Of a DNA stretch of 36,359 bases, positions 5,187-31,702 are shown one piece after another. How positions within the stretch are numbered: position 1 is the stretch's first letter; each line of letters starts with the position of its first letter. The stretch is from contig CATMOE010000038.1 of assembly GCA_950072105.1 (NCBI GenBank), positions 1 through 36,359 of the forward strand, written 5' to 3'. The DNA is from an uncultured Dehalococcoidia bacterium (lineage in GTDB: Bacteria; Chloroflexota; Dehalococcoidia; Lucifugimonadales; UBA3495). The notes below the pieces were generated by a model. The model worked only from the letters and a program-made list of their open reading frames with translations, made no database searches and was not told the DNA's origin. The position numbers and the translations under genes are program-made.

Positions 5187-6254
5187 CTACTTTTCGCCGA
5201 TCAACTCCCCGCTAACGATCAGCCGATGGTCGTAGACCAGTCTTGGCACGCATGAAACTAGATGTAGGGTAGCTTTGCCGGTGTCGTGAAGCGCCATTTC
5301 CTCTTGAGGTACTACCCGTGACGACGTGATGCGGTACAGGTATTGACGCTCCCCGTTCGACGTTACTACAAATACGTCTTCGCCGTTCTGCAGCATTCCA
5401 GGAATCTTGCTCAGGTTTAGGAACACCGAGCCCTCTCCCTGGATAGGGCTTTCCGTATGTCCGAAGAACCATCCGCTTCCGGCTTCGCCAGCATTGGCGG
5501 TTTCCGGAATATGGCCCACGGTGTTGGCGGGGGTTTCGTAGGCACGGCTTCCCCCCAGGTTCAGTATGGCCAGCTCATCGACCCCTGAATCCACATCGAT
5601 GGATGGGATAATAAGCCTGGTAGCCGGAGACCCGCTGCCCAAGGGCGATCCTTGGTTAAGATTCACCGCGTTGAACCCCTGGAGTAAGATCCGCTCCCTG
5701 TACGAGGCAGACTCGTAAGACAGGGGATTGCTCCAGAATGAAGCTTGCAGCGACTCCCCCGGGAAAAGCTGCTGATTGCTTATGGCCGAGAAGGGCATCA
5801 CCAGGAGCGGGTTGGATGACCCGCTCGCCGATACAGGATCTTCTCCCGGATCACCGGATGCGCCTCCGATAGCCACTTTAGGAGCCCCGGACCCCTCGGT
5901 CGACCCGCCATCCGTCCCGGTTCCTTGGACCGCTGGAGCTACCGCCTGACTAGACGATTGCCCTTCCGATTGTACCGGGCTCGAATGCGGGTACACGCCT
6001 TCTTGCGCTTGGTCGATTTGGGATTCGGTTAACGAGCCTTGGCTACCTGGACCGACGCTTGTTTTGGCGTTGGGGTTTGGGAGCGTGACATTTAGGCTAT
6101 CCAGGTCGGCATGGGCCTTGGCCGCATAGCCGTAGTAGGCTCCGCTGGTCGCCAGCAGTATTGCGCCAAAGACAAAAACAAATATTCCTGACACGTTGAA
6201 GAACCGGCGCTGCAGCCGTCCGCGGAGTAGTAGGTAATCGTATCCTGCTTCCAT
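5187..6254 (-). CDS. Sortase-domain protein with N-terminal TM anchor and S/G/P-rich linker
   Basis: RLIIPSIDVD, FFGHT (His), LHLVSC (Cys) and HRLIV (Arg); AGGAGGT RBS. Confidence 0.88.
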   Translation of the reverse strand: MEAGYDYLLLRGRLQRRFFNVSGIFVFVFGAILLATSGAYYGYAAKAHADLDSLNVTLPNPNAKTSVGPGSQGSLTESQIDQAQEGVYPHSSPVQSEGQSSSQAVAPAVQGTGTDGGSTEGSGAPKVAIGGASGDPGEDPVSASGSSNPLLVMPFSAISNQQLFPGESLQASFWSNPLSYESASYRERILLQGFNAVNLNQGSPLGSGSPATRLIIPSIDVDSGVDELAILNLGGSRAYETPANTVGHIPETANAGEAGSGWFFGHTESPIQGEGSVFLNLSKIPGMLQNGEDVFVVTSNGERQYLYRITSSRVVPQEEMALHDTGKATLHLVSCVPRLVYDHRLIVSGELIGEK

Positions 6255-6755: not shown

Positions 6756-8351
6756 TCACTCCAGGAAGTCCTTTAGTTTACGAGAACGGGAAGGGTGGCG
6801 CAGTTTCCGAAGCGCCTTGGCTTCGATCTGACGAATCCTTTCGCGCGTCACGCCGAATTCCCGTCCGACTTCCTCCAAAGTCCGGCTGCGTCCGTCCTGC
6901 AATCCGAACCTCAGCTGCAATACCCTGCCTTCCCGCTCGGTGAGGGTGTGAAGCACCTCGTCTACCTGCTCTTTCAACAGTTGGAAAGACGCTGCGTCCG
7001 CAGGCGCGGGAGCGTTGCGGTCCTCGATGAAGTCTCCCAGGTGGGAGTCCTCTTCTTCACCGATGGGAGTCTCCAGAGAAACCGGCTCCTGGGAAATCTT
7101 CAGTATCTCCTCGACCTTCTCCGGGCCGATCTCCATGGCCTCGCCGATTTCCTCAGGAGTCGGTTCCCGGCCGTACTCCTGTAGCAGTCTGCGGTGTTGG
7201 CGCATGAGTTTGTTGATGGTTTCCACCATGTGCACCGGGATCCGTATTGTCCGGGCTTGGTCGGCTATCGCCCGGGTGATCGCCTGGCGGATCCACCAAG
7301 TCGCGTAGGTGCTGAACTTGTACCCCTTCCGGTAGTCGAATTTCTCGACCGCGCGGATGAGACCGATGTTGCCCTCTTGGATCATGTCCAGAAGCGCCAT
7401 ACCCCGGCCAATGTACTTCTTGGCAACGCTGACCACCAAGCGCAAGTTAGCCTCGGTTAGGTGGGCCTGGGCCCGGGACATCTCCGCGTGGATCCGATTG
7501 AAATAGGCTCTAAACAGAGGGTCTAACCGCTGGAGTTCGGCGTAGATACCCGGCTGCCTCAGGGTGGCATCCAGGTCGCTCAACTGGCAGTCTTCCAGCA
7601 CGTCGATGGCGTCGGGAGGCAGCAGCCAACTGTTCAAAGACAGATGCACCACTTGGATGTACAGACCTTCCAGTTCCTCACCCATCGATTCAGCGGCAAT
7701 GGCCAGCATCTCAGGAGACACCTCGGCGTCGATGGCCGCCCGCAGCTTTGGGTGGTCTGTAACCTGGGACAATGTAAGATTAGCCGGCAAACCCAACTGC
7801 TCGCCGAGGGCTGCCAAGAGTTGAGAAGACGCGATCAAACGGCGCAACAGGCCACAGGTGATTTCCCAAGGACGCGGTTGCCGGCTCTCAAGGCTGGTCA
7901 GTTCATTTTGCAGGGCTGTTAGATGCTTCCCGCCCTCAATCTTCCGGGCGAGGGAGCGTTCGTCTTTAGAGGTAAGCAGCCGGACCCGTCCGATCTCGCG
8001 CAAGTACATCCGTACCGGATCGTCCAGTACCTCTACGGTTTCTGTTTCCGGTTCCCAGTCCGAGTCCTCTTTATCGGACTCCTTCGAGGAATCGTCGGAA
8101 GCGTCGTCGGACGACTCCTTGGTCTTCTCGTCCGTAGCTGTCCCGTCCCACTGATCTTCTTGATTCTGGGCAACGAGGGTCGAGGGCAGATTAGCCAAGC
8201 CATTGGACTCACTGTTTGATTCGTCTTCCTGGCGGGCTTTCACACCGCGGAATATCTCCACGATCGCGTCGCCGTCGCCGTCGCGGGGCTCTTCGCTACC
8301 TTCCAGAAACTCTTCGGGGTTGAGACTGCTGTCACTCTTACGTCTTGGCAT
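6756..8351 (-). CDS. rpoD: Primary RNA polymerase sigma factor
   Basis: [57 protein letters not shown] and [20 protein letters not shown]. Confidence 0.98.
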
Positions 8352-10484: not shown

Positions 10485-11942
10485 TTAAGTGCGCCGTAGG
10501 AAGTCTCGCACTTGCTCTTTCAAAGGGTCCGGATCGAATCGGCTCCACAAGATGCTGGCGTTGCGCATCCAGTCTCCTTGGAAGTACCGTTCGTAAAGGA
10601 CCTGACGGGATCCAAATGCGCTTCCGGATAGGTCCCAGGCCAGGCGAAACAGTTGCACCCGCTCCCGGGCGGTGGCGGTGTCCGTATCCATGTATTGCTC
10701 AATCTCCGCGCCCAGAGGTCCGTTGAAGTCCACCTCCGATGGCAAAGCCATCAAGCTGCTGGAACCAAGGAGTTGGATGATTTCCACCATCCTTGGGTAC
10801 ATGCGGATGAACATGTTCCGCGCCACGGTGATTGGTATCGTCGCCGGGCACATTACCCCCCATTCATCCAAGAAGGCGTCGATCTCGGCGGTGCAGAGTA
10901 GAGCTTTCATGACTTCCAGGTTCTCGATCAACTCGGCCAGCAAAGCATGCACCTGGCCGATGCTCTCCGACCCCAAGATCTCTACCATCATCGCGGCCAC
11001 ACCCAACACAAACTCGCACTTCGCCACGTTTTTGGTGACGACCTGGTGGCCGGAATGGTTGTATTGGTGCGTCCTGGGACTGAGATTGTTGGCCAGGTCC
11101 ACGTCCCGGTATAGGAACACTCTCTCCCAAGGGACGAACACATCGTCCATGAAAATTATGGCGTCCATCTCTTCAAACCTGGACCCCAACGGATGATCGA
11201 AGCTGGACCGGTCCAGGTCAAAGCTCTCCCGGCAGAGGAATCTGAGGCCCGGGGTGCCACACGGAATAGCGAAAGCAAAGGCATACCGCCAGGCGTCCTC
11301 AGTGCCTTCTAGCTGGGCGTTTCTTACTGGGTAAACCGCTATCTCGTCGGATAGGGGGCCCAGGGTAGCCAGAACTCGGGGACCGCGGACGACTATGCCG
11401 GCATCGGTTTCCTTGACCACCGCCAACGCGACGTCTGTGCTGTAATTCTGGGTACTGGCAGCCGGGCGGCGATTCCTCTGTAGATTCACCAGGGTATGGG
11501 TTAAGGTCAGGTCGTTCTCTCGGATGTAGTCGTAGTAATTGATGATGTTCTGTTTGAACTCGGGGCGTGACTGGGCAAAATAATCTCCTGCCTGGGCCAT
11601 GGCCATGATGCTGACGTTTAGGAAGTCCGGCGTACGCCCCATCATGCCGTAACTGGTATGGGCCCAGTGGGACATCATGGTCCGGCGCCTTTGCAAGTCT
11701 TCCAGATTCCTGGGAGCGATGAAAGAAAGGCCGACCGGATCACCCGTGGTGGGCGAGGTATAAGTCATCTCGTCGCGTATTTTCGGGTCGTGCTGCATGT
11801 CGTAAAGTCCGGCGATGGAACGAGCACCATTGGCCAGACCGGGAAAGGTAGTCACGTCCTCCACCTTCTGGCCTCGGTGGTGTATCTCTCTCGGTTGGTC
11901 CCGCAGTCCCGCTAGGTACTGTTCTCCGGTGCGCACTGGCAT
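10485..11942 (-). CDS. hpaB: 4-hydroxyphenylacetate 3-monooxygenase-like oxygenase component
   Basis: RTGEQYLAGLRD, GMMGRTPDFLN, FDHPLGSRFEEMDA and FGSRQVLYERY; ATG at 11942 with an AGGAG RBS. The substrate is not established. Confidence 0.9.
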   Translation of the reverse strand: MPVRTGEQYLAGLRDQPREIHHRGQKVEDVTTFPGLANGARSIAGLYDMQHDPKIRDEMTYTSPTTGDPVGLSFIAPRNLEDLQRRRTMMSHWAHTSYGMMGRTPDFLNVSIMAMAQAGDYFAQSRPEFKQNIINYYDYIRENDLTLTHTLVNLQRNRRPAASTQNYSTDVALAVVKETDAGIVVRGPRVLATLGPLSDEIAVYPVRNAQLEGTEDAWRYAFAFAIPCGTPGLRFLCRESFDLDRSSFDHPLGSRFEEMDAIIFMDDVFVPWERVFLYRDVDLANNLSPRTHQYNHSGHQVVTKNVAKCEFVLGVAAMMVEILGSESIGQVHALLAELIENLEVMKALLCTAEIDAFLDEWGVMCPATIPITVARNMFIRMYPRMVEIIQLLGSSSLMALPSEVDFNGPLGAEIEQYMDTDTATARERVQLFRLAWDLSGSAFGSRQVLYERYFQGDWMRNASILWSRFDPDPLKEQVRDFLRRT

Positions 11943-12068
11943 CTGTATCACTCCTGAGGGGTCGGCGCCGGCCACCGGCCGACGCCAAATCGTTCCGTGA
12001 CGGCTAGGTCTCGCATCATCTTACTATACCCAGCAAAGGCACAACCCACGAGGCTGTTTATATCCGGT

Positions 12069-12953
12069 TTATGCGCCCAGATAGCGGCGCAGCCAACTCA
12101 TGGCATGAGCGTTGAAGTCGGTGCACGGAGAGTGGGTCAACTCGGGATAAACGTGGAGCGCCTTGGGACCTGGGATGCGCTCAAAGACGGGTATTATCGT
12201 ATCGTAAGGACAAGTTTGGTCTTTCTTTCCAATGTCCACCAAAGTTGGGCACGTTATGCGGTCGACCAAGTTTAGGCAATCGAAGTAAGAAAGCGTCTCT
12301 AAAACTTCGGTTCTCTGCTGGGGATGCTGGGCCAGATAGTCGCGAAGCTCGCTGTAGGGTGAACTGGTTAGGTCAACCGCCAACGGATAGTTGCAAAGGA
12401 ACGGCTCTTCGGCCACCGCAACCTTCAGTCTTTGATCCAAGGAGGCTGTCGCCAGGGTGAACCCTCCGCCTTGGCTACGGCTCCACATCCCCAATCGCTC
12501 CGGGTCGACCTCCGGACGGGAGCCAAGGAAGTCCAGACCCCGGATGCAGTCCATGTAGGCCCCGCGGTAGTAATACTCCTCTTTATTCTCGAGATGGTAG
12601 GTCAATTTCGTGCCGGACTCTAGTTGCCACTCTTTGAGGCTTTCGCCCTGTCCTCTTGGGTAAAGAGTCAACACCACGAAGCCATTCAAAACCAAGTGGA
12701 ATGGGATGACTTTGCCGCCTCCGTACCCAGGCGCCGCCAGGACCGCCGGAAACCGGCCGTTGGGAGGCGGGTCATTGGGCACGGAATACCAGGCCCGCAT
12801 TCGCCGGTCCTGGAAGCTATGTAAGACAACCTGGTAGGTGGTGAACTCCCGTCCGCTCTGATCGGGAGACTCCTCCACGGAGGCTTTCATCTCCGTTTGC
12901 TCTAGCTGCTTAATCGTACCTTCCCAGAATTCCGATAGTCCGGTAGGACCCAT
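12069..12953 (-). CDS. Acetylxylan esterase / cephalosporin-C deacetylase family (CE7-like) alpha/beta hydrolase
   Basis: PGYGG, RGQG, YYYRGAYMDCIR, SRSQGGG nucleophile elbow, LSYFD, DQTCP and ELTH; ATG at 12953 after GGGAGG. Confidence 0.9.
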   Translation of the reverse strand: MGPTGLSEFWEGTIKQLEQTEMKASVEESPDQSGREFTTYQVVLHSFQDRRMRAWYSVPNDPPPNGRFPAVLAAPGYGGGKVIPFHLVLNGFVVLTLYPRGQGESLKEWQLESGTKLTYHLENKEEYYYRGAYMDCIRGLDFLGSRPEVDPERLGMWSRSQGGGFTLATASLDQRLKVAVAEEPFLCNYPLAVDLTSSPYSELRDYLAQHPQQRTEVLETLSYFDCLNLVDRITCPTLVDIGKKDQTCPYDTIIPVFERIPGPKALHVYPELTHSPCTDFNAHAMSWLRRYLGA

Positions 12954-13239
12954 GGTTTCCTCCCTTGTTTCCACTTTTAGAAAAGGCTGATCGAGAAAGT
13001 TTGCCCGTTACGGCTAGACCCTATCTCAAAACAGGATCCAGCCTGCGCCATCGACGTTGATATAGCCGCGGGTTGGCAGGCCGGTTCAACTTAACCGGGG
13101 GCTTTCATGGTGTCAAGATTGGTCATCTTAAGGCCGGCGGCAAAGCCGGTGATTCGCCTATAACCGGTGGCTCACGAAAGAGTACAATTGCGAACGCTAT
13201 GCGGCGGCCACGCTGCGGCGATCACGGAGAACATTAGAG

Positions 13240-14514
13240 TTGCAATCCGCGCCCCGGGACTCTGTCCCTTTATTGGCAGTATTGAAAAACCGCGCCTTTC
13301 GTACTATCTGGTACGTGGGCACCCTCCACGAGTTTGCCCGGCGGATGGAGCTGCTGATTCTCAGTTGGCTTATCCTCCAGGTTACAGACTCGTATTTTCA
13401 ACTCGGCTTGGTTTTGGTGTTCAACAACCTTCCCAGGCCGTTGATCTCGCTTTTCTCCGGAGTAATAGCAGACCGGTTCAGCCGCCACCGCACAATATTT
13501 ATATCCCAGATAGTGAACGCCATCACTTCCGGGGTAATGCTATTCCTGGTGGCATTCCATATGGATCTATTGAGTCCGTGGATGGTGTTTGCGGCCATCG
13601 CCATGCAGGGCGTGACCAAGTCGATCGAGGACCCATCCCGTCGAACGGCAATCTTGGACATCGTGGGTGAACGGCAATTGGTTCCTGCCCTCTCCTTGGA
13701 CACGATCAGTAATACCTCTGGGAAGATGGCCGGCCCTCTCCTGGGTGGGTGGCTTCTGGGCAACATCGATATCTCCGGGGAATTCACCGGGGCCTACATA
13801 TTCGTCGTATCCATTCACCTGATCAACGTCGTTGCGATTACCCAACTTCGGATTCCCCTCAGAGTATCGAGTCAACCCGGCGAAGCCGTGTGGCGGGGAT
13901 TGAGGACGGCCATTGGATTTGCTCTGCGCAGCCCGTTCATGCGGGGGCTACTCTACGTGACCATCGTCATGAACACTTTGACATTCCCGGTCCAGCAGTT
14001 CATCCCTGCCATCGGGCGCGACAATCTGGGTGTGGGCGTCGCCATGGTGGGCCTGCTAGTTGCGGCCGAGGGCATCGGCCAGTTAGCGGGTGCGGGACTG
14101 ATAGCCTTGGCCCGGGACATCCGATATCACGGACGGCTATTCGCCTTGGGGTCAGTGTCCATCTGTTTCATCACGATATTGTTCGTATGGGCGCCTTGGT
14201 ACGGGTTGGCTTTCGCTCTATTGGCCGTTGGGGGTGTCGGGCAATCGGGGTTTGGAACCATGCAAAGCGCGATTGCTTTGCTGGCCTCTCCCCAGGAAAT
14301 GAGGGGCCGTATGATGGGGTTGCTCAGCTTCTGCATCGGCGTGGGGACTCCGCTTGGAGGACTGGAGATGGGAGCCATGGCGGCTTTATTCACGATCCAA
14401 GGCGCCATCACAGCTAACGTGGCGGCGGGGCTGATCTTGATGGCGCCCGCCCTGGTCTTGAGTCCTTTGCTGTGGAAACCTTTGACTCGTCCGGCGGCCC
14501 CAGACCTCCCCTAA
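13240..14514 (+). CDS. MFS transporter (MFS_3/EntS-like)
   Basis: About 12 hydrophobic segments, GVIADRFSRHR motif A and EMRGRMMG. The TTG start is uncertain. Confidence 0.9.
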   Translation: MQSAPRDSVPLLAVLKNRAFRTIWYVGTLHEFARRMELLILSWLILQVTDSYFQLGLVLVFNNLPRPLISLFSGVIADRFSRHRTIFISQIVNAITSGVMLFLVAFHMDLLSPWMVFAAIAMQGVTKSIEDPSRRTAILDIVGERQLVPALSLDTISNTSGKMAGPLLGGWLLGNIDISGEFTGAYIFVVSIHLINVVAITQLRIPLRVSSQPGEAVWRGLRTAIGFALRSPFMRGLLYVTIVMNTLTFPVQQFIPAIGRDNLGVGVAMVGLLVAAEGIGQLAGAGLIALARDIRYHGRLFALGSVSICFITILFVWAPWYGLAFALLAVGGVGQSGFGTMQSAIALLASPQEMRGRMMGLLSFCIGVGTPLGGLEMGAMAALFTIQGAITANVAAGLILMAPALVLSPLLWKPLTRPAAPDLP

Positions 14515-14593
14515 CCCTTCCTTTGCAAGCAGTGAAATTTAATGCCTCGGCTCTATGAGACATCTCGCCTTCCATCGAGATCGTCCAGGTCTC

Positions 14594-14626
14594 GTCCCCC
14601 CTTTAAAAAGGGGGACCACAGGGGGG
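14594..14626. repeat. C-rich/G-rich REP-like palindrome
   Basis: GTCCCCCCTTTAAAAAGGGGGACCACAGGGGGG; same architecture as the units at 15879-15959 and 20119-20152. Confidence 0.6.
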
Positions 14627-14696
14627 CCGCTTCCCTCTACAGCTAATCTTCTCATGGTCTTTGGATTTCGTAGAGACCGGAGTTAACGTTCGCTGC

Positions 14697-14725
14697 TTGC
14701 CCCATCTAAAGGGAAGGGTTATATT
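14697..14725 (+). promoter_or_regulatory. Putative sigma70 promoter for the globin/aroQ-like pair
   Basis: TTGCCC, 17-bp spacer, TATATT. Confidence 0.5.
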
Positions 14726-14773
14726 CTGAGGGCATCTCAGTATTTGGTGTAGTGCTGGAATTAGCGGGGGTGT

Positions 14774-15349
14774 ATGCCTTATATCGTCGATTGGCCGGGC
14801 CGGTTGAAAGAAATGGCGGATTTCGTGGGCCTGGGAGAGGAAGAACTGGCCCTCATTCGAGAAACCTCGTCCGTGGTTTTAGAGCATGCCGATAGCTTAA
14901 CCGCCTCGGTGTATGACAATTTCCTCAAGTTTCCGGGATCCCGAAAATTCTTCTTGAATGCGGACGGTGAGGTGGACGACGTTCGTCTAGACCGGCGGAA
15001 ACATAGCCTGGCACGTTGGCTAAAGGGCTCCATCGACTTCAAGATCGATGAGGACTACCCCATAAGAGTCCTAGCCACCGGCATCGTGCACTCTCATCCT
15101 CCGGTCCACCGGGCGCACATGGGTTCCATCCCCAGCCGATTCATGATCGGCACCATCTCCTTCACCCAAACGGCGTTGGCAGAATTGCTGCATCGGGAGA
15201 TGGAGGACGCCGGATTAGCGGCGCGGGCGTCGGCAGCCTGGAATAAACTGATGATGTTGCAGTTGGACATATTGCTGGCCGGTTATCTAACCGAAACGCC
15301 CACCGAGCCGGAGCCCTCCGGACATGAAAGCTCCAGCGGACCGTGCTAA
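14774..15349 (+). CDS. Stand-alone protoglobin/sensor-globin domain protein
   Basis: FVGLGEEELALIR, VYDNFLKFP...FF, LARWL, GIVH (candidate proximal His) and AWNKLMMLQLDILL. Confidence 0.8.
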   Translation: MPYIVDWPGRLKEMADFVGLGEEELALIRETSSVVLEHADSLTASVYDNFLKFPGSRKFFLNADGEVDDVRLDRRKHSLARWLKGSIDFKIDEDYPIRVLATGIVHSHPPVHRAHMGSIPSRFMIGTISFTQTALAELLHREMEDAGLAARASAAWNKLMMLQLDILLAGYLTETPTEPEPSGHESSSGPC

Positions 15350-15411
15350 AAAAGCCGCGCCGTGTGTCTATCGGACCGGGACTCAACAATACATGGATTG
15401 GAGATTAAGCG

Positions 15412-15843
15412 ATGACTAAAGTGCTGGTGATCCAGGGAGCAGGGATGAACATGCGGGGCAAATCCCAATTGGACATCTTCGGCCCGACCACTCTGGACCA
15501 GATCAATGAACAGATTCTTGGCTACGCCGAAGGTCTGGGGATAGACGTTGAGCTATATCACTCGAATATCGAAGGCGAAGTAGTCAACGCCATATATGAT
15601 GCCCACGACCGGCAGATAGACGCGGCAGTGATCAACCCCGCCGGCTACACCACCACCACCGGGCCGCTACGCGCCGCGATCACCCAGGTGGGATTTCCGT
15701 TCATCGAAGTACATGCCTCCAACCCCACGGCCAGGGGAACGGTGTCCAATGTACTACCGGTGTGCAAAGGCTCGGTCTACGGCTTCGGAGTTTACGGATA
15801 CTACCTGGCCTTGGAAGCTGTCAAGCACATGTGCGCCGAGTAG
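15412..15843 (+). CDS. aroQ: Type II 3-dehydroquinase-like protein with a divergent active site
   Basis: HSNIEGE, INPAGYT and IEVHASN give the fold assignment; the lid Arg and Tyr are not conserved. Confidence 0.8.
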   Translation: MTKVLVIQGAGMNMRGKSQLDIFGPTTLDQINEQILGYAEGLGIDVELYHSNIEGEVVNAIYDAHDRQIDAAVINPAGYTTTTGPLRAAITQVGFPFIEVHASNPTARGTVSNVLPVCKGSVYGFGVYGYYLALEAVKHMCAE

Positions 15844-15878
15844 TTTTACTGGGGTTGGAATTTGATCGGGGCAGAAGC

Positions 15879-15959
15879 ACCCCCATCCTAACCTTACCCC
15901 GTAAAGGGGGAAGGGACTAATCTCCTCCTCCCTTGCGGAGGAGGATTAAGGTGGGGGGT
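15879..15959. repeat. Inverted pair of C-rich/G-rich REP-like units between convergent genes
   Basis: ACCCCCATCCTAACCTTACCCCGTAAAGGGGGAAGGGAC, and for 15922-15959 the reverse complement ACCCCCCACCTTAATCCTCCTCCGCAAGGGAGGAGGAG. Confidence 0.8.
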
Positions 15960-16007
15960 ACCGTAGCCAGCACCGCCGGTCGGGTAGCGTACCAGTCGGA
16001 CTGGAAG

Positions 16008-16199
16008 CTATCCGCACCAAAGGCAACGGGTCTCATCGAATACGGTGGCCTGAATATCAGGGTTGGACAGCAGGTAGTCCACCATGATCCGCACCACCTT
16101 GCTTTCGTCGGGAATGTTGTACTGTTCTTGGGTGGATCTGAGAAACGCGATCTGTTCCGCGCTTAGATCGATCTGATAAGCATCCTTGGCTCCAGCCAT
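16008..16199 (-). CDS. Small hypothetical protein, possibly ribbon-helix-helix-like, with C-terminal CxxC
   Basis: AGGAG RBS, co-oriented with xth, strand-helix-helix pattern, ends in RCLWCG. Confidence 0.7.
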   Translation of the reverse strand: MAGAKDAYQIDLSAEQIAFLRSTQEQYNIPDESKVVRIMVDYLLSNPDIQATVFDETRCLWCG

Positions 16200-16287
16200 G
16201 GGTCACTCTCCTGCAAACACCACCGGCCTTCCGGTCGATGGAATAAATTCTGGGATACCTGGTTTCGAATAGGGCCGTTCGGACGGG

Positions 16288-17061
16288 TCAGGCGATGTCG
16301 ATACCCACCGGGCAGTGGTCCGATCCCATCACGTCGGCGAGAATGTAAGCGTTCGTGACCTGGGAAGAAAAAGCGTCATCCACAAAGAAGTAGTCGATTC
16401 TCCAACCCACGTTCCGGTCCCGGGCGCGGGTCATCTGGTCCCAATAGGTATAGTTCTCCGGTTCCTGGTTGAACATGCGGAAAGTGTCTTTATAGCCGTG
16501 GCTGATGAACTTGTCCATCCATTCCCTTTCGATGGGCAAGAAGCCCGATGTGCCCTTGTTGGGTTCCGGCCGCGCCAGGTCTATCTCTGTGTGGGCGGTA
16601 TTCAAGTCGCCACAAAGCACGATGCCCTTACCTGACGCTTTAATCTTTTCCACGAATTCCAGAAAGTGGTCGTAAAACTCCATCTTGTACTGCAGACGTT
16701 CGCTGGATGACTGGCCGTTGGGAAAGTAGATGTTGATCAGAACGAACCGGCCGTAGTCGGCAACCAACACCCGGCCTTCTTTGTCGTATTCCTCGACTCC
16801 CAAACCGAAGCTAACCTGTTCCGGTTCAGTTTTGGTGTAAAGGCCCACTCCACTGTAGCCCTTCCTCTCAGGTGTCGAGAAGAACGAGTGGTAACCTTCG
16901 ATTTCCTTCAACGCTGCCGGCAATTGGTCCACATGGGCTTTCGTCTCCTGCAAGCACATTATGTCCGGGCTTGTTTGGCCCAACCACTCCACGAATCCTT
17001 TCTTGTGAGCCGCCCGAATCCCGTTGACGTTCCAGGAAATTGCTCGAATCGTTTCCGCCAT
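16288..17061 (-). CDS. xth: Exodeoxyribonuclease III (AP endonuclease)
   Basis: [33 protein letters not shown] and GSDHCP; ATG at 17061 after GAGGAG. Confidence 0.97.
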
Positions 17062-17120
17062 TTCAGATCTCCTCAAGGGGTCCGGGGAGTTTGGTCACCT
17101 AAGTTGCACCAAACCAATGA

Positions 17121-17189
17121 GTGGTTCGACGAACTCACCACGAACGGTAGGATGCGCTTTCGCCGTTCGTCCTCAGCCTGTCGAAGGAC
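17121..17189. repeat. Inverted pair of CCGTTCG-tagged REP-like units
   Basis: 17121-17147 reverse complement is CCGTTCGTGGTGAGTTCGTCGAACCAC; 17163-17189 is CCGTTCGTCCTCAGCCTGTCGAAGGAC. Confidence 0.8.
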
Positions 17190-17222: not shown

Positions 17223-19298
17223 CTAGGGCCGGATCAACACCCGAACGGTTCCGTCGGCGTCCTTGCGGTGGTTGAGTACGTTGTGTTTCCCCTGCTCGGC
17301 CCAAAGGATGACATCGTAGATGTTCAGGGCGTCGGCCAGGATGGCCTCCACTAAAGATTTATCGTCGTACTCCATCTGCCTGGCCAGGGCGGCGATGACA
17401 CCGGCGCAACTCTTGCCCCGGCCGTCGATGACCACCCAACCGCCCCCGGAACCGTTGCTGGGCATGGTCATTGCTTCGTTGAAATTGGCCCCGGAACTAG
17501 CCCCTTGGAACCCATTGGCTTCGGAAAATACGTTAACTTCACCGGTCTTGCGCATGTCCAACTGGCGCTTGAATTCGGCCACTGACTCCCAAGCAACCGA
17601 CCGTCCCCGGTCTCCATCGCCGCATACAGCGCCACGGACCCCGACGATGTCTGGATTGACTCGAGCTAACTCGTCCAAGTCAGAGATTTTCAAGTGACCC
17701 GACAATGCGGTACTCATACCCATCTCTTTTCCCTGGAGAACCATCTCCTTCAATTTGGCTTCTGTGATGAAATCAAATAGATTTCTACCGTCCTTGGTCA
17801 GAGTATCGATGAGCCATCCGTCGCACTGGCCGTCTTTTGCCAGCTGGACCATGCACATGGGATCCAAGCCGCCGTCGTATAGCACATTGTCGGCAAAAAC
17901 CGAGCCTACCAACTTGCAATTGAAACCCTCCATCGCCCGCCGGGATTGTTGGAGGATGTCAACGGCGGTGTCGTAGTCGGTGGTTCGAAAACCAACCTTG
18001 ACCGACGTAGCGTTCAAGCTGGCGGCGGCATAGGCAGCCATGGCCACCGTGCCGGCCTGATTGGGTACGACTCCGAGGGTAACGCTGACGTGATTCTCCG
18101 GCTGGATCTGGGACCGGACTTGGTGTACCACCGAGGGATGGCCCGAACCGACCATCGCCTCTTGCAGGTTCTTAACGTCCACTACGTCGGCTCCGCCCCT
18201 TTCGGCCTCCAGCGCCTCAGCCACGTTCTGGACGCTTACCATCAACAGCATTCCGGAGAAAAAGGCATTGTTGCCGGTCAGCCAGGACACCCGGTCGTTA
18301 ACCGGCTCGGCGGGCACGGCGTGAACAACTGGCTTGGGCTTTAGCGGTTCTAACTCCCGGCGCAGTTCGTCCTTTTGCTGGCTAGACATGTCTCCCAAAG
18401 GCGCTCGTGCGTGTCCGGTGGACAGGCCCATCAGTTCTCCCCAATATTTCACCATGGGTATGGGCAATGCGCCGTTTAGCTGGTCGACGGTCCGCGTCCA
18501 CCACGTGTCGGAGAGCTCCTTGATTCGGCGCAGGTGTTTGTCGTAGAAAGGCTCGTCCAGGTTTCCTTCGGTAGCCTTGTCGATAAATTGGACGTAGTAG
18601 TTGGCCTCCGGGACGTCGAAGCGCCAATCGGAGGTGTTGGAAAACATGACCTGTTGCTCAAAGCCAAGTTCCTTACCTTTCCAGAATATCCACTCGTCGG
18701 GAGTGCTGATGACGTGGTCCTTGCCCAGTGACAGGTGAGTCTCAATGGATAACTGCTGGTTGAAACTTGCTTCTTTAACACCCACCACGTTGGGTATCTG
18801 ACACAGTTGTTTAAGGCTGGAGGGACTTAAGACTATCCCGAATTGCGGGGAGTTGTAGAACATGATGGCCAGTGAGGTTTTTTCGGCCAAGTAGCGCACC
18901 CACTCGACCACTTGCTCTTCCGTCTTGGTAACCATGTAAGGAGGAGCCACGATCAGGACATCGTATCCCATAGTTTCGGCATTGCGGGCCAGGTCTAACA
19001 TGGCATGCGCCGATGTGTGGGTTACGTGAGCGCCGATGAGCCACTTGCCTTGGGATTCGTCAGCCACGACTTCCATCACCTTCAGACGCTCTTCGTGGGT
19101 CAAGCTCCAGAACTCACCCATCCCCCAAGTGCACCCGGCGCCGCGGGTACCCAACTTCTGAATATGGCGGATGTTATGGCGCATCCCGGTGTCGTCAAAC
19201 TCGTCGTCCGGGGTGAAGGGTGTGATCAAAGTGGTCCATTGGCCTTTCAAGGCGTCCTTGGCCCATTCCTGCGCTTCCTCTTTGGTATAGGTGGCCAT
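17223..19298 (-). CDS. Three-domain fusion: DapA/NAL-family aldolase + MfnB-like (5-formylfuran-3-yl)methyl phosphate synthase + TusA-like sulfur carrier
   Basis: aa 1-~320: ITPF, GMGEF, FYNSP, VGVKEAS. aa 350-~580: LLMVSVQNVAEA..A..GGADVVDVKN, SVKVG, DTLTKDG..LFDF, DIVGVRGAVC..GDR. aa ~621-691: IDGRGKSC...D.....DV..WA...H...LIRP. One uninterrupted ORF. Confidence 0.85.
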   Translation of the reverse strand: MATYTKEEAQEWAKDALKGQWTTLITPFTPDDEFDDTGMRHNIRHIQKLGTRGAGCTWGMGEFWSLTHEERLKVMEVVADESQGKWLIGAHVTHTSAHAMLDLARNAETMGYDVLIVAPPYMVTKTEEQVVEWVRYLAEKTSLAIMFYNSPQFGIVLSPSSLKQLCQIPNVVGVKEASFNQQLSIETHLSLGKDHVISTPDEWIFWKGKELGFEQQVMFSNTSDWRFDVPEANYYVQFIDKATEGNLDEPFYDKHLRRIKELSDTWWTRTVDQLNGALPIPMVKYWGELMGLSTGHARAPLGDMSSQQKDELRRELEPLKPKPVVHAVPAEPVNDRVSWLTGNNAFFSGMLLMVSVQNVAEALEAERGGADVVDVKNLQEAMVGSGHPSVVHQVRSQIQPENHVSVTLGVVPNQAGTVAMAAYAAASLNATSVKVGFRTTDYDTAVDILQQSRRAMEGFNCKLVGSVFADNVLYDGGLDPMCMVQLAKDGQCDGWLIDTLTKDGRNLFDFITEAKLKEMVLQGKEMGMSTALSGHLKISDLDELARVNPDIVGVRGAVCGDGDRGRSVAWESVAEFKRQLDMRKTGEVNVFSEANGFQGASSGANFNEAMTMPSNGSGGGWVVIDGRGKSCAGVIAALARQMEYDDKSLVEAILADALNIYDVILWAEQGKHNVLNHRKDADGTVRVLIRP

Positions 19299-19482
19299 CT
19301 TGTAACTCCTCTCGTATGGCTAACGATTGATTGCTTTTCACTGAGGCATTTTATGCTTTTATCCGGCTTCAGTCCATATGTTAACGGTTCCACTGGTCAG
19401 ACCCGTCCAGTTCTTACGAAGGCCCCAAGCGAAGCGCGATAGGTAAGAGTTGCCAATGGGCATGAAACAGATTCCGGCGAAG

Positions 19483-19510
19483 AAAAAGCCCCGGCGATTA
19501 TTGCCGGGGC
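19483..19510 (-). terminator. Rho-independent terminator
   Basis: Minus strand GCCCCGGC-loop-GCCGGGGC-TTTTT, about 40 nt after the stop at 19550. Confidence 0.85.
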
Positions 19511-19549: not shown

Positions 19550-20026
19550 TTAAGTGGCGATCAAGTTTTCTTCGATCGCTTTGGGCCGGAGGCCGCTATG
19601 CTTTACCAGATGAGCCTTTATAGCGTCTATAGCGGTTGCTACCAACGTGGGATCAATTAGATCAGCCGCTGGGCCGTACTCCGCTTCTTGAAGCAATGCC
19701 TTGGTGTTATCCTGGATCTGCTGGTAAGCCCACTCCACTTGCGTGGCGACTGTGTTGACACCCTCGGGGAAATCACGGTGGGAGTTTCCCGGCCTCTCCA
19801 GACGGTCATATCCGCCGCCGTGCCAGTGGCCGATCGCGTCGTGGCAATCCCATCGCAGGACTTCTTCGTTGCCCACGTCGATGCCTATGGTCGGCCCGCC
19901 GCATCCCTTCTCTCTGATCGTCAATATCCGTAAAGGCCACACGTAGGCGGCAATTTGTCCATCCTGAGAAAGGGGCAAATGCAGCGCCTCGCCTCGATAA
20001 GTTTCACCAGGTATCTTGGTCGCCAT
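19550..20026 (-). CDS. Hypothetical protein with an E-x-LR[FW]DC..H[YW]H motif
   Basis: GGAGGAG RBS and its own terminator; EEVLRWDCHDAIGHWH. Confidence 0.8.
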   Translation of the reverse strand: MATKIPGETYRGEALHLPLSQDGQIAAYVWPLRILTIREKGCGGPTIGIDVGNEEVLRWDCHDAIGHWHGGGYDRLERPGNSHRDFPEGVNTVATQVEWAYQQIQDNTKALLQEAEYGPAADLIDPTLVATAIDAIKAHLVKHSGLRPKAIEENLIAT

Positions 20027-20118
20027 ATATTCTCCTCCATTGTTATCAAGTGGTATCGGCCCCTGAGTTTCGTTCGCCGAAAGAATCCCTTACCCTGCCA
20101 CGATTCCATCGTGGCCTG

Positions 20119-20152
20119 CCCTCTGCCAAAGGGAGAGGGGATGGGGTGAGGG
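20119..20152. repeat. C-rich/G-rich REP-like unit
   Basis: CCCTCTGCCAAAGGGAGAGGGGATGGGGTGAGGG. Confidence 0.7.
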
Positions 20153-20171
20153 AAAATCTACCACCTGCGGT

Positions 20172-20615
20172 CTAGTAATAACGCAGTTCTACGACGTTAT
20201 CGTCGGGGTCGTAGACGTACAGGGAGATTCCGTCGCCGTGGGAACCCCAGCGCTTGCCGGGCCCGGCTTGGATCCCCACACCCATCGCCTCGAACTTGGC
20301 CTTCAACTCGTCCATGTCCGTCTGCTCAATGACCATGCAGAAGTGGTCCTGGTTCTTGACGCCATCTCTGTCGATGGGTTCTTGGTCGCTGCCGAACAGG
20401 TCGATGATCGTATCATCGTTTAGGCGCGCCGATGGGAATCGTACGTCGCCGGCCCGCCACTCATCTATCCGCTCGGGCTTCAGACCCAGTGTCCCGGTGT
20501 AGAACTGGAGAGACCTTTCCACGTCCTTAACTCTAAGAACGATGTGATCCATCTCGGTTATCTTAACCAGTGGCTGTACCTTGGTCGATGAAGCCCTCTC
20601 TGTTTCGGTCGACAT
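20172..20615 (-). CDS. VOC/glyoxalase family protein
   Basis: MDHIVLRVKDVERSLQFY..LGL, DHFC and LYVYDPDDNVVEL. Confidence 0.93.
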   Translation of the reverse strand: MSTETERASSTKVQPLVKITEMDHIVLRVKDVERSLQFYTGTLGLKPERIDEWRAGDVRFPSARLNDDTIIDLFGSDQEPIDRDGVKNQDHFCMVIEQTDMDELKAKFEAMGVGIQAGPGKRWGSHGDGISLYVYDPDDNVVELRYY

Positions 20616-23101: not shown

Positions 23102-25449
23102 CTACCCCATCGGCAATGTGAACCAAAATGTGCTGCCCTTTTGAGCCTCTGATTCTACCCAAATGCGTCCCCCATGCCGATCAATTACCTTTTTGCAGAT
23201 TGCGAGACCGATACCGGTTCCGGAATACTCGGCCTTGCCGTGAAGACGTTGAAAGATCACAAAGATACGCTCGGCAAACTCGGCCTCGATCCCGAAGCCG
23301 TTGTCGCTAAAAGAAAAGAGCCATTTATCTCCGCTCTCCACTGCGGAAACATGAATGCACGGTGAATCAGCTCCGTGGTATTTGATGCCGTTGCCGATAA
23401 TATTCTGAAAGACCTAAACAAGCTGTGAAGCGGCAGCCTGGACAGTCGGTAAGCAGTCTCGTGTCACGACCGCTCCGCTTTCTTCGATGCTTCCCGCCAG
23501 ATTGCTTATGGCCGTATCGAATATATCTTGGCAATTTGCCGAATCATACTCTATGACTTGGGTGGTAATCCGTGAAAATGCCAATAAGTCATTGATTTGA
23601 TCTTGCATTCGCTTTGCCCCATCAACTGCAAAGGCAATGAAATCATTGGCATCAGAATCGAGCTTGTCCTTGTAACGCCGCGCCAATAATTGGGTGTAAC
23701 TTGCTACCATGCGCAGCGGCTCCTGTAGGTCGTGCGACGCGATATGGGCAAATTGGTCTAGTTCCTGATTGGACCGTTCCAGCTCCACGATTAGGGCCTC
23801 CCGTTGTGCCTCCACCAACCTGTTTTGACGGTAGAGTCGAGCGTTAGAGAGGGCGCCTGAGATCTGGTTAGCGATTCGCAGGGCGAGACTCAAATCCCGT
23901 TCGTCATAGTTCTTTTCATTTATAGAGTTAATGTGAAGTGCACCAATGATCTCGTTCCTCGAGACCAGTGGTACGCCAATAAACGACCTTGCGCCTGCCT
24001 TATAGACAGGTACGAGACCCAGAATTTGGTGAGACAGCTCGTCGATGTTATCGGACTGAATGAGCATCGCCGAGTTGGAATTGACAATAGCTTCCGTAAA
24101 CGACCCTGAGAGTGGCGCTGCTTCGTCGGGCCGACGTCCCGGTGCGTCGAGACCTTTTACGGCCCGTACGAAAGTCCCAGTGACGAGATCAACGGTATTA
24201 ATTGCAATTCTGTCGTGGGTGATAAGCTTTTGTATCTCTTGAGCGAGGGGGTCGTATATTTCGGCGATGTCTGAAGATTCGGTAACAACCCTGCCGATTT
24301 CGGCCAAAACCGAGTTTTCTTCGGCCGACCGGCGCTCCCGAATTACAGCCTCCTCCCGTGCTTCAGCCATCTGATTAAAAGAATTTGCAAGGTCGCCTAT
24401 TTCATCTCGAGGTTTGATGTCCGTCCTAACGCTGAGATTCCCCTCACCAAGCTCGATTGACGCGTTTCTCAACCTCACGATTGGATTGAGGATATTCCGG
24501 CCCACAATCATCATCGTGGCAACTCCAATTAAGAGGCCCAATAAAGCAAAAATTCCGGTCACTAGTACGGCGGCATTTGATGACGATTTGGCGCCCTCCA
24601 GCGCTTTAACTGATTCGGCACGTATACGCGGGTGGATGTCCTCAGCCACGACTCTGTTGATCGCCTCGACGTTAGCTTCTAATTGCCCGAACAGAGAACG
24701 TTTCTCGTCTGCTAGGTCCATAGCCGATTCGCCCAAGGCTACTACGTCTTGGAAGTCCCTATCGATAATCTTCATCCACTGGTTCTCCACGGTGGAGAAT
24801 GAGGAAGCTCGGTATACGTTCTCGAACTTTTCAAAGTCCTGTGCACTGTCTATCACGACTTGCCTAAGTTCGGGGCTCGGACGATCGATGTAACTTTGAA
24901 TCGCGGCGAAAGCCTCATCGATGTTTATGTCCATTTCCAACACAGCTTCTAATTTTGATAGAGACTTAGGATCATTTCGGTTTACCAGTGGCTGGAGTCG
25001 TTGGTCAATAACCTCATCGATTTCCGCGACGTCGTTTCGCAGTTGCAAGATTATTGGTTCTACCCGGTCGATGATGTCAATGATTCGGACCCCGAGCTCC
25101 TGCAAACCGTCATGAAGATTGTCGACCTTAATAGCGGATGTCCTTTGTTCAGCGGTCTCGGCCAGTCGATGGAATTCTTTCATGGATCTCTTGAAGTCGG
25201 CATCGGAATCCTCGAAACGATCGACGTGTACGGCTTGTTTATCAATCGAGTACAGGATTATAGCTCTGGCGCCTTCACCAGCGTTATTCTCTAGTTCTAG
25301 AGGAGCTTCTACTAACGGTCCCTCGACCAGTCCAAGTTTTTGTACATTCTTGTCAATCTGATATATCAACACCAAAGACAAGAACGCGCTTGAAACCAGG
25401 AGAAGCATCAAGCCTCCCAGAGCCGGCCCAGTTTCTGTTTGATACTCAT
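23102..25449 (-). pseudogene. Membrane sensor histidine kinase (TM, helical sensor, TM, HAMP, GAF, HisKA, HATPase), disrupted twice
   Basis: H-box ASHDLQEPLRMV. An in-frame TAG at 23414-23416 is followed in frame by VFQNIIGNGIKY..DNG.GI..GTGIGLAICK. A probable 1-nt deletion at ~25424 separates MSIKQKLG from ALGGLMLLL. Confidence 0.85.
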
Positions 25450-25975
25450 CGCCGTCCCCTGTCGATGCCGTCCAAAGGTGGTTCCGGAGCTGCGTCAAGT
25501 ACCTGTGCCAAACATATGATGACTCTGCCTTCCGAAGGTCGGGTTGCCGGATTCGGCTGGGCTGCATGGTAGTCTGGCAGATCACGAATGGACGTGGACG
25601 TTCAGCGACCATCCCCTGTTTATAATAGAAACCCCGAGAAGTCTGTACCAGAATGTATTCACCCCAAAATACATATGGATTCTCCCACGGCACAGTCGGG
25701 CTTAATTGATATTTTCCGCGAATCGTGATCGTGAAAGCGGCAGGTCGAGGAGTTCAAAGTCTTAGCAGATTCAAATGGATACCGGAGGGTTGCCCCAAAG
25801 ACGAGCTGAGGGTATTCGCTGTGGCCTAACGGAGGTCAGCCAGCCATCTCGAAACCTGATTGTTCCGGACACGACTCTTGCTCGTTCCCGGCGATGCTCG
25901 GAGGTTACCCCGGATGTCGCCGCCGAGCGGACCCCAGAGCAGCGGTGCACCGCCACCGCCGGGTAGACACGCCCA

Positions 25976-31189: not shown

Positions 31190-31702
31190 TCACTCTCCAT
31201 GCCCCCTAATCAAGCCCCGTATCAGTGCTACTTGACCCGTGTGTTGGCTTTCCTCGACGAGGATGTGTCCAACGATCCAGGTTCCAGCCCGGTCACTGCC
31301 CCTGCTGGAATACTCCTGCAACAGGTCGCCGTCTGAGGCATGGTCCAGATATTGGCGTGTGACGGCACGAACTGCGACGAAGTAGGCCATTAGTTCGCTA
31401 AGTGGTATCTCCGGCATCCCCCGGACGTCCTCGCTTGTCTGCCCGAATCCGTTGTCTTCGGGGTCCATGCCGAATCGGTCGGCCCATCCATCCGCGTTCC
31501 ACACCTGGGTGGTCCCTCTCAGGAGCCGACTCACCCACGAGTCCTCGACACGCGCCATATGCCAGACCAACCAGGCAATGTGGTTAGTGTGCATCGTGGG
31601 CTGCCAGCGCGCCTCGGCAGGCGTCAGTCCATCGATCGCACGTTCCAGACTCTGGAGGTATTCCTCAAGTCCACTCCGGATGGCCTCTTTAAATGCATCC
31701 AT
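31190..31702 (-). CDS. DinB/YfiT-family protein (putative thiol S-transferase)
   Basis: NHIAWLVWHMARVED and HILVEESQHTGQ; GGGAGG RBS. Confidence 0.88.
   Translation of the reverse strand: MDAFKEAIRSGLEEYLQSLERAIDGLTPAEARWQPTMHTNHIAWLVWHMARVEDSWVSRLLRGTTQVWNADGWADRFGMDPEDNGFGQTSEDVRGMPEIPLSELMAYFVAVRAVTRQYLDHASDGDLLQEYSSRGSDRAGTWIVGHILVEESQHTGQVALIRGLIRGHGE

Follow-up and report, generated by a model that had tools for sequence, protein, structure and literature searches.

A three-part aldolase, MfnB-type and TusA-fold enzyme of SAR202 bacteria and some archaea with a probable role in respiratory-quinone head-group synthesis

Introduction

What does a single protein do that joins a DapA-like aldolase, a relative of the furan synthase MfnB and a TusA-like sulfur carrier in one chain? 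The question is raised by a 36,359-nucleotide stretch of DNA from an uncultured Dehalococcoidia bacterium (contig CATMOE010000038.1 of assembly GCA_950072105.1), here called the window, which is one contig (C38) of a 4.08-Mb genome that is 92% complete. An earlier note, made from the letters of the window alone, had picked out the open reading frame (ORF) at 17223..19298 and proposed that its product makes a new ring, possibly with sulfur. We find that the fusion is genuine and that this three-part enzyme is strongly conserved in SAR202 bacteria and in some archaea. Judged from genome content, we think it has a good chance of serving in the synthesis of the respiratory-quinone head group, and it probably builds the ring, as the front end of a third route to a respiratory quinone, since the known ring routes are missing from the genomes that carry it and the finishing enzymes are kept. 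This reading builds on the genes that accompany the module and those that are absent beside it, on gene linkage, and on the conservation of catalytic residues.

In a 2026 survey that covered 26,264 bacterial genomes, Chloroflexota is one of the main lineages for which no quinone pathway is known, and quinones yet to be discovered are suggested (PMC13386864). SAR202 makes up 10–30% of deep-sea planktonic prokaryotes (PMC10444878), and methyl-plastoquinone was discovered by the same missing-pathway logic (10.1101/2024.07.27.605408). As the earlier note had supposed for the architecture, we found no description of this module, nor of a SAR202 quinone, in the literature searched, a coverage that largely excludes subscription papers.

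One protein or several genes

The fusion and its parts, with the evidence for each in brackets, are as follows.

17223..19298, minus strand: three-domain ORF of 691 aa (ORF list, Pfam; one ORF in 35 of 60 relatives)
18348..19250, minus strand: N domain, aa 17-317, a barrel of the DapA/N-acetylneuraminate lyase (NAL) superfamily, not a dihydrodipicolinate synthase (DHDPS) (Pfam, residues, fold)
18774..18776, minus strand: codon of K175, the lysine predicted to form the Schiff base in the N domain (100% of 104 members)
18255..18332, minus strand: variable low-confidence linker, aa 323-348, which is the split point in two-gene genomes (AlphaFold model, relatives)
17571..18245, minus strand: M domain, aa 352-576, a barrel of the family of MfnB, the synthase of 4-(hydroxymethyl)-2-furancarboxaldehyde phosphate (4-HFC-P), in a distinct clade (alignment, fold, tree)
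18171..18173, minus strand: codon of K376, equivalent of the MfnB Schiff-base Lys27 (4rc1 alignment, subfamily conservation)
17445..17522, minus strand: Gly/Asn-rich flexible linker, aa 593-618, tethering the TusA-fold domain (AlphaFold model, relatives)
17229..17432, minus strand: C domain, aa 623-690, TusA fold; in archaeal-type loci a gene of its own directly behind M (Pfam, profile)
17406..17408, minus strand: codon of C631, an invariant cysteine aligned with the Ta1170 cysteine (22 of 22 and 79 of 79 sequences; 1pav alignment)

The composition read by the earlier note, DapA-like, MfnB-like, and TusA-like in 691 residues, is confirmed by the ORF list, by Pfam, and by an AlphaFold model in which low-confidence linkers connect two TIM barrels and a small alpha/beta domain. 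In the profile scan that the note had proposed, DHDPS (aa 17-317, 113 bits) and 4HFCP_synth (aa 352-576, 180 bits) both exceed the Pfam cut-off of 22, and TusA (aa 623-690, 24 bits, E 3.5e-5) stays under its cut-off of 28.6; 11 NCBIfam models match, every one under its own cut-off. A complex prediction for N and M with C as partner returned a score of 0.00, which gives no verdict and is not used as evidence. The fusion is neither chimeric nor unique to this contig, two outcomes that would have spoken against the note: an independently assembled contig of 4,128 nt covers the whole gene with 4 differences, and this, together with the single ORF in 35 of 60 relatives, rules out an assembly chimera.

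The architecture search, also proposed in the note, shows that the fusion recurs across related Dehalococcoidia. Specifically, the module (N, M, and C, fused or not) is present in 49 of 60 related genomes, i.e. in 34 of 36 from its own family and 15 of 24 from other families, as one ORF in 35, split into neighbouring genes for N and for M-C, in that order, in 13, and in broken form in one. Those relatives that have a name belong to the Dehalococcoidia; for one with split genes, the protein carries the label SAR202 cluster. The fusion also occurs in two metagenome-assembled genomes (MAGs) labelled Actinomycetota, whose M domains nest among Dehalococcoidia sequences in a quick tree. Among archaea, M and N are found in one Thermoprotei MAG and in five relatives, and 80 metagenome loci found with the archaeal protein hold separate genes in the order M, C, N. 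The C gene is present in 79 of 81 loci (the 80 plus L092), both misses ending within 81 bases of M, and the N gene in 61 of the 80. Through differing gene orders and fusion states, bacteria and archaea thus keep the three parts together.

Beyond these parts, 74 bacterial-type and 83 archaeal-type loci show no neighbour that is conserved across lineages, and a larger operon with extra pathway genes is therefore rejected. The window neighbours DUF7700, glyoxalase, xth, aroQ, and hpaB are conserved in a few genera at most; the module is single copy and stands among housekeeping genes (recG, ileS, fpg, speD/E, and pheA). In Thermoprotei-type loci (L092:4542-7875 and L105-L115), M-C is divergent from a gene of the chlorite-dismutase/coproheme-decarboxylase family, often near moeA and xdhC.

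Carriers lack the known early routes

Two known sets of early enzymes lead to the menaquinone ring, and neither is found beside the module. Among the 60 relatives, mqnE is over its cut-off in 2 genomes and menB in 4, all 6 without the module; menB or mqnE over cut-off is thus seen in none of the 49 carriers and in 6 of the 11 non-carriers. With one count per family, the comparison is 0 of 16 carrier against 6 of 9 non-carrier families (Fisher P = 5e-4, kin not being independent). A class-wide sample of 251 genomes, with menB called at E <= 1e-85 and mqnA/D as PF02621 at E <= 1e-44, holds the module in 18, menB in 89 (79 over cut-off), and PF02621 in 11; the union of the latter two is 99 genomes and its overlap with the module is 0. 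The exclusion extends to a single family, f61, where 8 genomes have the module and 3 others have futalosine genes. In the archaeal carriers PF02621 is found in 0 of 6, and menB is found in none of the carriers in any sample (0/49, 0/18, and 0/6; menD and menF were not searched).

In the genome of the window itself, mqnD, mqnE, and menB were not found. One radical S-adenosylmethionine (SAM) relative, at 35% to MqnC, may be CofH. Two divergent MqnA-like genes (L222:76-831 on contig C27 and L223:950-1720 on contig C19), at 41% and 34% to futalosine MqnA, may be a relic or a repurposed chorismate dehydratase. Unlike the early enzymes of the futalosine pathway (MqnAECD), the module has no radical-SAM or chorismate-binding domain.

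By the tests made, the module is not a member of MfnB proper, of DHDPS, of the futalosine early pathway, or of the Men pathway.

Carriers keep the late quinone genes

The late genes of the futalosine pathway, as predicted in PMC4746308, are kept by the carriers. An MqnP-type UbiA is encoded by 47 of 49 carriers, by both futalosine genomes, and by none of the 4 menB genomes; MqnL is present in 16 of the 18 class-wide carriers (the two misses are 55-57% complete) and in 11 of 11 futalosine genomes. In the genome of the window, contig C27 has an mqnL-ubiA-ubiX-menG operon. Its MqnL scores 627 bits against a cut-off of 496, UbiX and MenG are over their subfamily cut-offs, and UbiA is over TIGR01475, its best matches being MqnP models, under their own cut-offs. 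On Mqn versus benzoquinone-type models the late enzymes score 627 versus 420 and 288 versus 91, and MenG reaches 185 on the MpqE model, under the cut-off of 335. The same genome encodes two homologues of complex I subunit C, as well as subunits I and II of cytochrome oxidase.

Gene order ties the module to these enzymes in several lineages. In two families the module stands directly behind mqnL-mqnP-mqnM: the order is ubiD-ubiA-ubiX-fusion in genome G043 and ubiD-ubiA-ubiX-fusion-menG in G054. At locus L034 the fusion lies behind ubiD-ubiA-ubiX. An MqnP-type gene lies within 30 kb of the module in 10 of 14 carriers outside its own family. In all 6 archaeal carriers the N gene is back-to-back with a MenA-like prenyltransferase gene; MqnL is over its cut-off in 5 of these and in two pieces in the sixth. 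The two Actinomycetota-labelled MAGs also have MqnL, UbiX, and MqnP-type genes, and neither early route was found in them, their completeness not being stated.

Trees of 38 UbiD and 34 UbiA proteins (the latter a quick tree) interleave the carrier enzymes with those of futalosine genomes, and in family f61 both early routes occur with the same long MqnL type. In gut bacteria, mqnP, L, and M are described only from genomes with the Mqn pathway (PMC4746308, in the part available), and their presence without early genes in the carriers therefore calls for another source of the ring.

Conserved and altered residues in the three domains

The M barrel superposes on MJ1099, the Methanocaldococcus jannaschii MfnB (PF04476; PDB 4rc1 and 4u9p), with Z 33.4 and an rmsd (root-mean-square deviation) of 1.9 A over 232 aligned residues at 36% identity. 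We compared 136 subfamily members with 126 other representatives of the PF04476 family. The subfamily retains D374, K376, K434, D470, D498, K502, R555, C559, and R564. In the 4rc1 alignment M has equivalents of D25, K27, K85, D151, K155, R208, C212, and R217, i.e. the two Lys and two Asp catalytic residues of the barrel among them. Lys27 is the Schiff-base lysine of MfnB (PMC6604932) and K155 and R217 have reported roles (PMC11365854); the equivalents of all three are among the residues retained.

The earlier note had described the MfnB part as altered, and this is upheld by residues and tree alike. The changes that it listed against MfnB (EGSLGA to EAMVGS, GD to GV, and AGS to SGH) are all seen in the alignment with the M. 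jannaschii protein, the His of SGH being bacterial only, with mostly Ala at that position in archaeal-type members. At positions that are 83-98% conserved elsewhere, the subfamily has P29L, G32A/M, L34V, A36S, D60V, Y122F, and A186S. In a quick tree with 55 rows, for which 30 of the 126 other representatives and 10 of 64 archaeal-type members were drawn at random, the subfamily stands as a separate clade (SH-aLRT 99). M is also, unlike MfnB, always paired with a TusA-fold protein and a DapA-fold enzyme. Outside the subfamily, distant genes of the MfnB family, at 28-35% identity, occur in 15 of the 121 archaeal genomes around G060 (L252-L266), and one protein, P0249, is intermediate and sister to the M subfamily in residues and tree.

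N shares its fold and the catalytic Tyr and Lys with the class I aldolases, dehydratases, and hydratase-aldolases of the DapA/NAL superfamily (DHDPS, NAL, KdgD, YagE, HOGA, PhdJ, and Pyr4H2C deaminase); Y148 and K175 are present in all 104 members. With the solved members listed, N shares 14-26% identity. A canonical DHDPS-type paralogue is encoded elsewhere in the same genome, and compared with it N has W[G/N]MGE for GTTGE and Phe at the R138 equivalent, i.e. G/N59, M60, M122, and F153 replace the TT motif, the second triad Tyr, and R138. These replacements of the TT pyruvate motif and its partners, together with a TIGR00674 score of 87 bits against a cut-off of 206, reject DHDPS as the identity of N. 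No named DapA-family subgroup stands out by sequence, language-model features, or fold: many members tie at the top with Z 28-33, and PhdJ (6dan; Z 30.4, rmsd 2.8, 306 aligned) is below or tied with many others. Invariant residues found in N only, compared with DapA/NAL, are W21, H188, D201, E202, N221, D224-W-R-F-D228, W266, and W267.

For the C domain, the TusA-like assignment of the earlier note gains a fold and an invariant cysteine. A profile built from 20 C domains matches the TusA-family protein Ta1170 (PDB 1pav) at E 4e-5 with the cysteine aligned, PF01206 is matched by 16 of the 20, and the C631 cysteine is kept in 22 of 22 sequences and, in further loci, in 79 of 79. TusA proteins carry a CPxP motif, CPGP in Ta1170. 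Unlike the TusA/SirA single-cysteine carriers, with which it shares the profile match and the aligned cysteine, C shows C-x-G in all 20 aligned members, is under the Pfam cut-off in the fusion, and is tethered to an aldolase-type barrel.

Which ring would the module build?

The module would replace MenFDHCEB or MqnAECD and would pass a bicyclic dihydroxy-aryl carboxylate to futalosine-type late enzymes, with MqnP prenylating, MqnL/MqnM decarboxylating, and MenG methylating. In M, K376 would form an imine with glyceraldehyde-3-phosphate (GAP), and phosphate would then be eliminated as in MfnB, whose chemistry includes this step (PMC6604932). A second triose might be joined in an altered geometry, because the residues around D60 have changed. 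N would add a 2-oxo-acid, probably pyruvate, through K175, and C631, on its flexible tether, could be loaded by a cysteine desulfurase and supply sulfane sulfur; the genome has desulfurases that, from their motifs, we take to be of SufS and IscS type. There is a working precedent in ThiG-ThiS thiazole synthase and BexX 2-thioglucose synthase, where a Schiff-base TIM barrel receives sulfur from a small carrier protein; those systems work with a single barrel and with thiocarboxylate carriers that fold differently. The genome encodes ThiG as a separate protein, so a replacement for thiazole synthase is rejected.

The likeliest product of such a reaction would be a dihydroxybenzothiophene carboxylate, C9H6O4S, equal to two trioses, pyruvate, and S0 less five H2O, a balance that would close without redox input from outside. 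A far-ring carboxyl would fit MqnP/MqnL, and the lipid would be sulfolobusquinone-like. As the module's product, a sulfur ring is to us possible rather than probable. In full, the proposal, which we advance tentatively, is that SAR202 and some archaea may respire with an undescribed benzothiophene-type quinone: for its ring one protein would use a pair of triose phosphates, pyruvate, and sulfane sulfur borne on a cysteine, with no call for chorismate, radical SAM, ATP, or oxygen, and borrowed futalosine late enzymes would finish it. Thus, of the earlier note's idea, a new ring that may contain sulfur is still the likeliest chemistry; its free-standing furan or thiophene cofactor has given way, as the comparative evidence ties the module to a quinone pathway.

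The proposed product would resemble sulfolobusquinone and caldariellaquinone, respiratory quinones of Sulfolobales with sulfur in the ring, a ring that Zhou and White in 1989 reportedly traced to tyrosine. A control search found no PF04476 match in S. acidocaldarius; the module is therefore not the sulfur-quinone pathway of that organism, and the caldariellaquinone pathway of Sulfolobus is rejected as its identity. Sulfur-ring quinones are described as known only from Sulfolobales, with uncharacterised pathways (PMC13386864, in the part available).

Within a quinone role, the module might instead make 1,4-dihydroxy-6-naphthoate or its quinone by aldol chemistry and so lead to normal menaquinone, with C631 as a covalent shuttle or redox thiol, not a sulfur donor. 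Several of the observations above would fit, namely the interleaving of carrier MqnL and MqnP with the futalosine-genome enzymes, the long MqnL type shared by both early routes in f61, and the MenA-like archaeal neighbour, and on paper C11 products can be reached by redox-neutral routes. As benzothiophene is an isostere of naphthalene, the shared late enzymes do not discriminate between a sulfur ring and naphthoate. Two points make the naphthoate rather unlikely in our view: the C11 routes listed call for a C4 or C5 partner, for a decarboxylation, or for four substrates, a harder task for an MfnB site of the GAP type, and the obligatory partner (79 of 81 loci) is a TusA-fold single-cysteine protein, TusA proteins being sulfur carriers (PMC4175335). 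A ring that is neither of these two, still within the quinone role, seems improbable.

Does the module serve quinones at all?

Several points weigh against a role in quinone synthesis. All evidence is genomic or comparative, and no quinone measurement for any carrier was found in the literature searched. The PF02621 threshold of 1e-44 was set after the divergent MqnA-like genes of the own family (E 1e-27 to 1e-41) had been seen, to exclude them, and such genes occur in 35 of 36 own-family genomes and 0 of 15 other carrier families. No MqnP-type gene lies within 30 kb of the module in the own family (0 of 33), and the linkage at 8-30 kb in 8 split-gene genomes may be one inherited block. At the 80 metagenome loci, a search confined to the loci themselves gave no UbiA, UbiD, or UbiX homologue, and the archaeal neighbour is MenA-like, below all cut-offs, and not MqnP. 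The C domain is without the CPxP prolines of TusA. The mass balance is not unique either: 15 redox-neutral combinations lead to C9H6O4S and 13 to dihydroxynaphthoate, and with so many solutions stoichiometry is rejected as proof of the product.

Late genes without a ring source weigh on the same side. In the class-wide sample, 21 of 251 genomes have MqnL without the module or a strong PF02621 match, and one of these has menB. The other 20 (12 of them from one genus, in which 12 of 13 genomes carry MqnL) may hold weaker PF02621 matches. At 9 of these 20 loci, which we inspected, an NMT1-like binding-protein gene is present in 3 and absent in 6. The 3 loci, all from Dehalococcoidia without the module, menB, or strong mqnA/D, combine a tetR-ubiD(mqnL)-ubiA(mqnP) operon with a binding protein like NMT1/THI5, and two of the three encode a full ATP-binding cassette (ABC) importer:

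L280:7795-14092 (G112): mqnL-mqnP operon with a binding-protein gene
L281:3843-10124 (G138): mqnL-mqnP operon with a binding-protein gene
L282:4357-10553 (G091): mqnL-mqnP operon with a binding-protein gene

The presence of such import genes in an mqnL operon suggests a candidate system for quinone head-group salvage. Genome G039 (97% complete, a single contig) has ubiD-ubiA-ubiX-menG (L224:8050-12436) with no importer in the operon and no module, menB, mqnE, or PF02621 match.

Read together, such points could mean that the module has nothing to do with quinones and that its product is a free-standing cofactor or some small heterocycle, the men/mqn pattern reflecting shared ancestry. The module is indeed self-contained, with no neighbour conserved in all lineages and no linkage in its own family or at the 80 metagenome loci, and the late genes are also found without it. 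We regard this as unlikely in view of the zero overlap with known routes in three samples, the swap of early routes inside f61, and the quinone genes that directly adjoin the module in one archaeal lineage and in two families of bacteria.

Far less credible still is a role in catabolism or detoxification: the module would act, for example, by sulfite beta-elimination from sulfolactaldehyde, by furan breakdown, or by methylglyoxal handling, its cysteine trapping a reactive intermediate. The phosphate elimination of MfnB (PMC6604932) might by extension act on another leaving group, and SAR202 are organoheterotrophs with predicted sulfur metabolism (PMC10444878). Against this, the gene is single copy amid housekeeping genes with no conserved transporter, dehydrogenase, or regulator, and the men/mqn exclusion would be left unexplained. 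The earlier note's alternative of a catabolic run on furans is not supported, no conserved catabolic neighbours having been found.

That M is an ordinary 4-HFC-P synthase for methanofuran or methylofuran, as its fold, identity to MJ1099, and fully kept catalytic residues might suggest, is next to negligible, given its score of 181 bits against the MfnB equivalog cut-off of 341, its separate clade, and the altered D60, P29, G32, A36, Y122, and A186 equivalents, and given that FTR, MCH, and MfnF (TIGR03123) were not found in the 92%-complete genome, with positive methanogen controls and mfnA, C, D, and E not searched. A methanofuran or tetrahydromethanopterin (H4MPT) role is thus rejected, in line with the earlier note, which had seen no other mfn or H4MPT gene in the window; none matched among the 28 window ORFs scanned with Pfam and NCBIfam. 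The methanofuran-pathway role is largely refuted, though in vitro M on its own could still give 4-HFC-P as a shunt product.

If the preferred reading, a role in quinone ring synthesis, is right, the module is a single gene that could fill the quinone gap of Chloroflexota. It would give a third route to a menaquinone-type head group, by aldol chemistry, the first function outside methanofuran in the MfnB family, and possibly a sulfur-ring quinone as a potential lipid biomarker of the dark ocean.

Transcription, population variants, and other genes of the window

Two features flank the start of the fusion.

19306..19310, minus strand: AGGAG ribosome-binding site upstream of the fusion ATG (read from the sequence)
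19488..19510, minus strand: hairpin resembling a terminator, behind the DUF7700 gene upstream (matches to consensus only; shuffles give similar counts)

A weak promoter-like site (19376->19348) also lies ahead of the fusion, again as a consensus match only, with counts close to shuffles, and hairpin and site together suggest that the fusion may be transcribed on its own. Fourteen marine or vent RNA runs contain the fusion stretch; in the four examined these are contigs with flat cover across intergenic DNA, so expression of the fusion is not shown. Contigs from two runs carry 189 other letters in place of 131 nt of intergenic 20040-20172 (region 19997-20220), and loose contig ends cluster at 17121-17151, which suggests small repeated elements on both sides of the fusion gene.

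Downstream of the fusion, window positions 10485-17076 hold hpaB (TIGR02309 over cut-off), an acetyl-xylan-esterase-like gene, a major facilitator superfamily transporter, a protoglobin, a type II dehydroquinase (below cut-offs), and xth, a block that recurs only in a few genera of the own family. Elsewhere, all on the minus strand, a HAMP-GAF-HisKA sensor kinase (23414-25693) ends at an in-frame TAG (23416-23414) with kinase ATPase-like sequence downstream, and the gene therefore looks interrupted, by a nonsense codon or an assembly error. RpoD (6756-8351, 531 aa) has about 150 residues between region 1.2 and region 2, a spacing that is unusual for a Chloroflexota primary sigma factor. A 355-aa sortase-domain protein (5187-6254) is weakly class F-like and under all NCBIfam cut-offs. 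Finally, a glucose-methanol-choline (GMC) oxidoreductase (31746-33296) is barely over the cut-off of mycofactocin MftG (396 vs 387) and is followed by a DinB/mycothiol-transferase-like gene (31190-31702).

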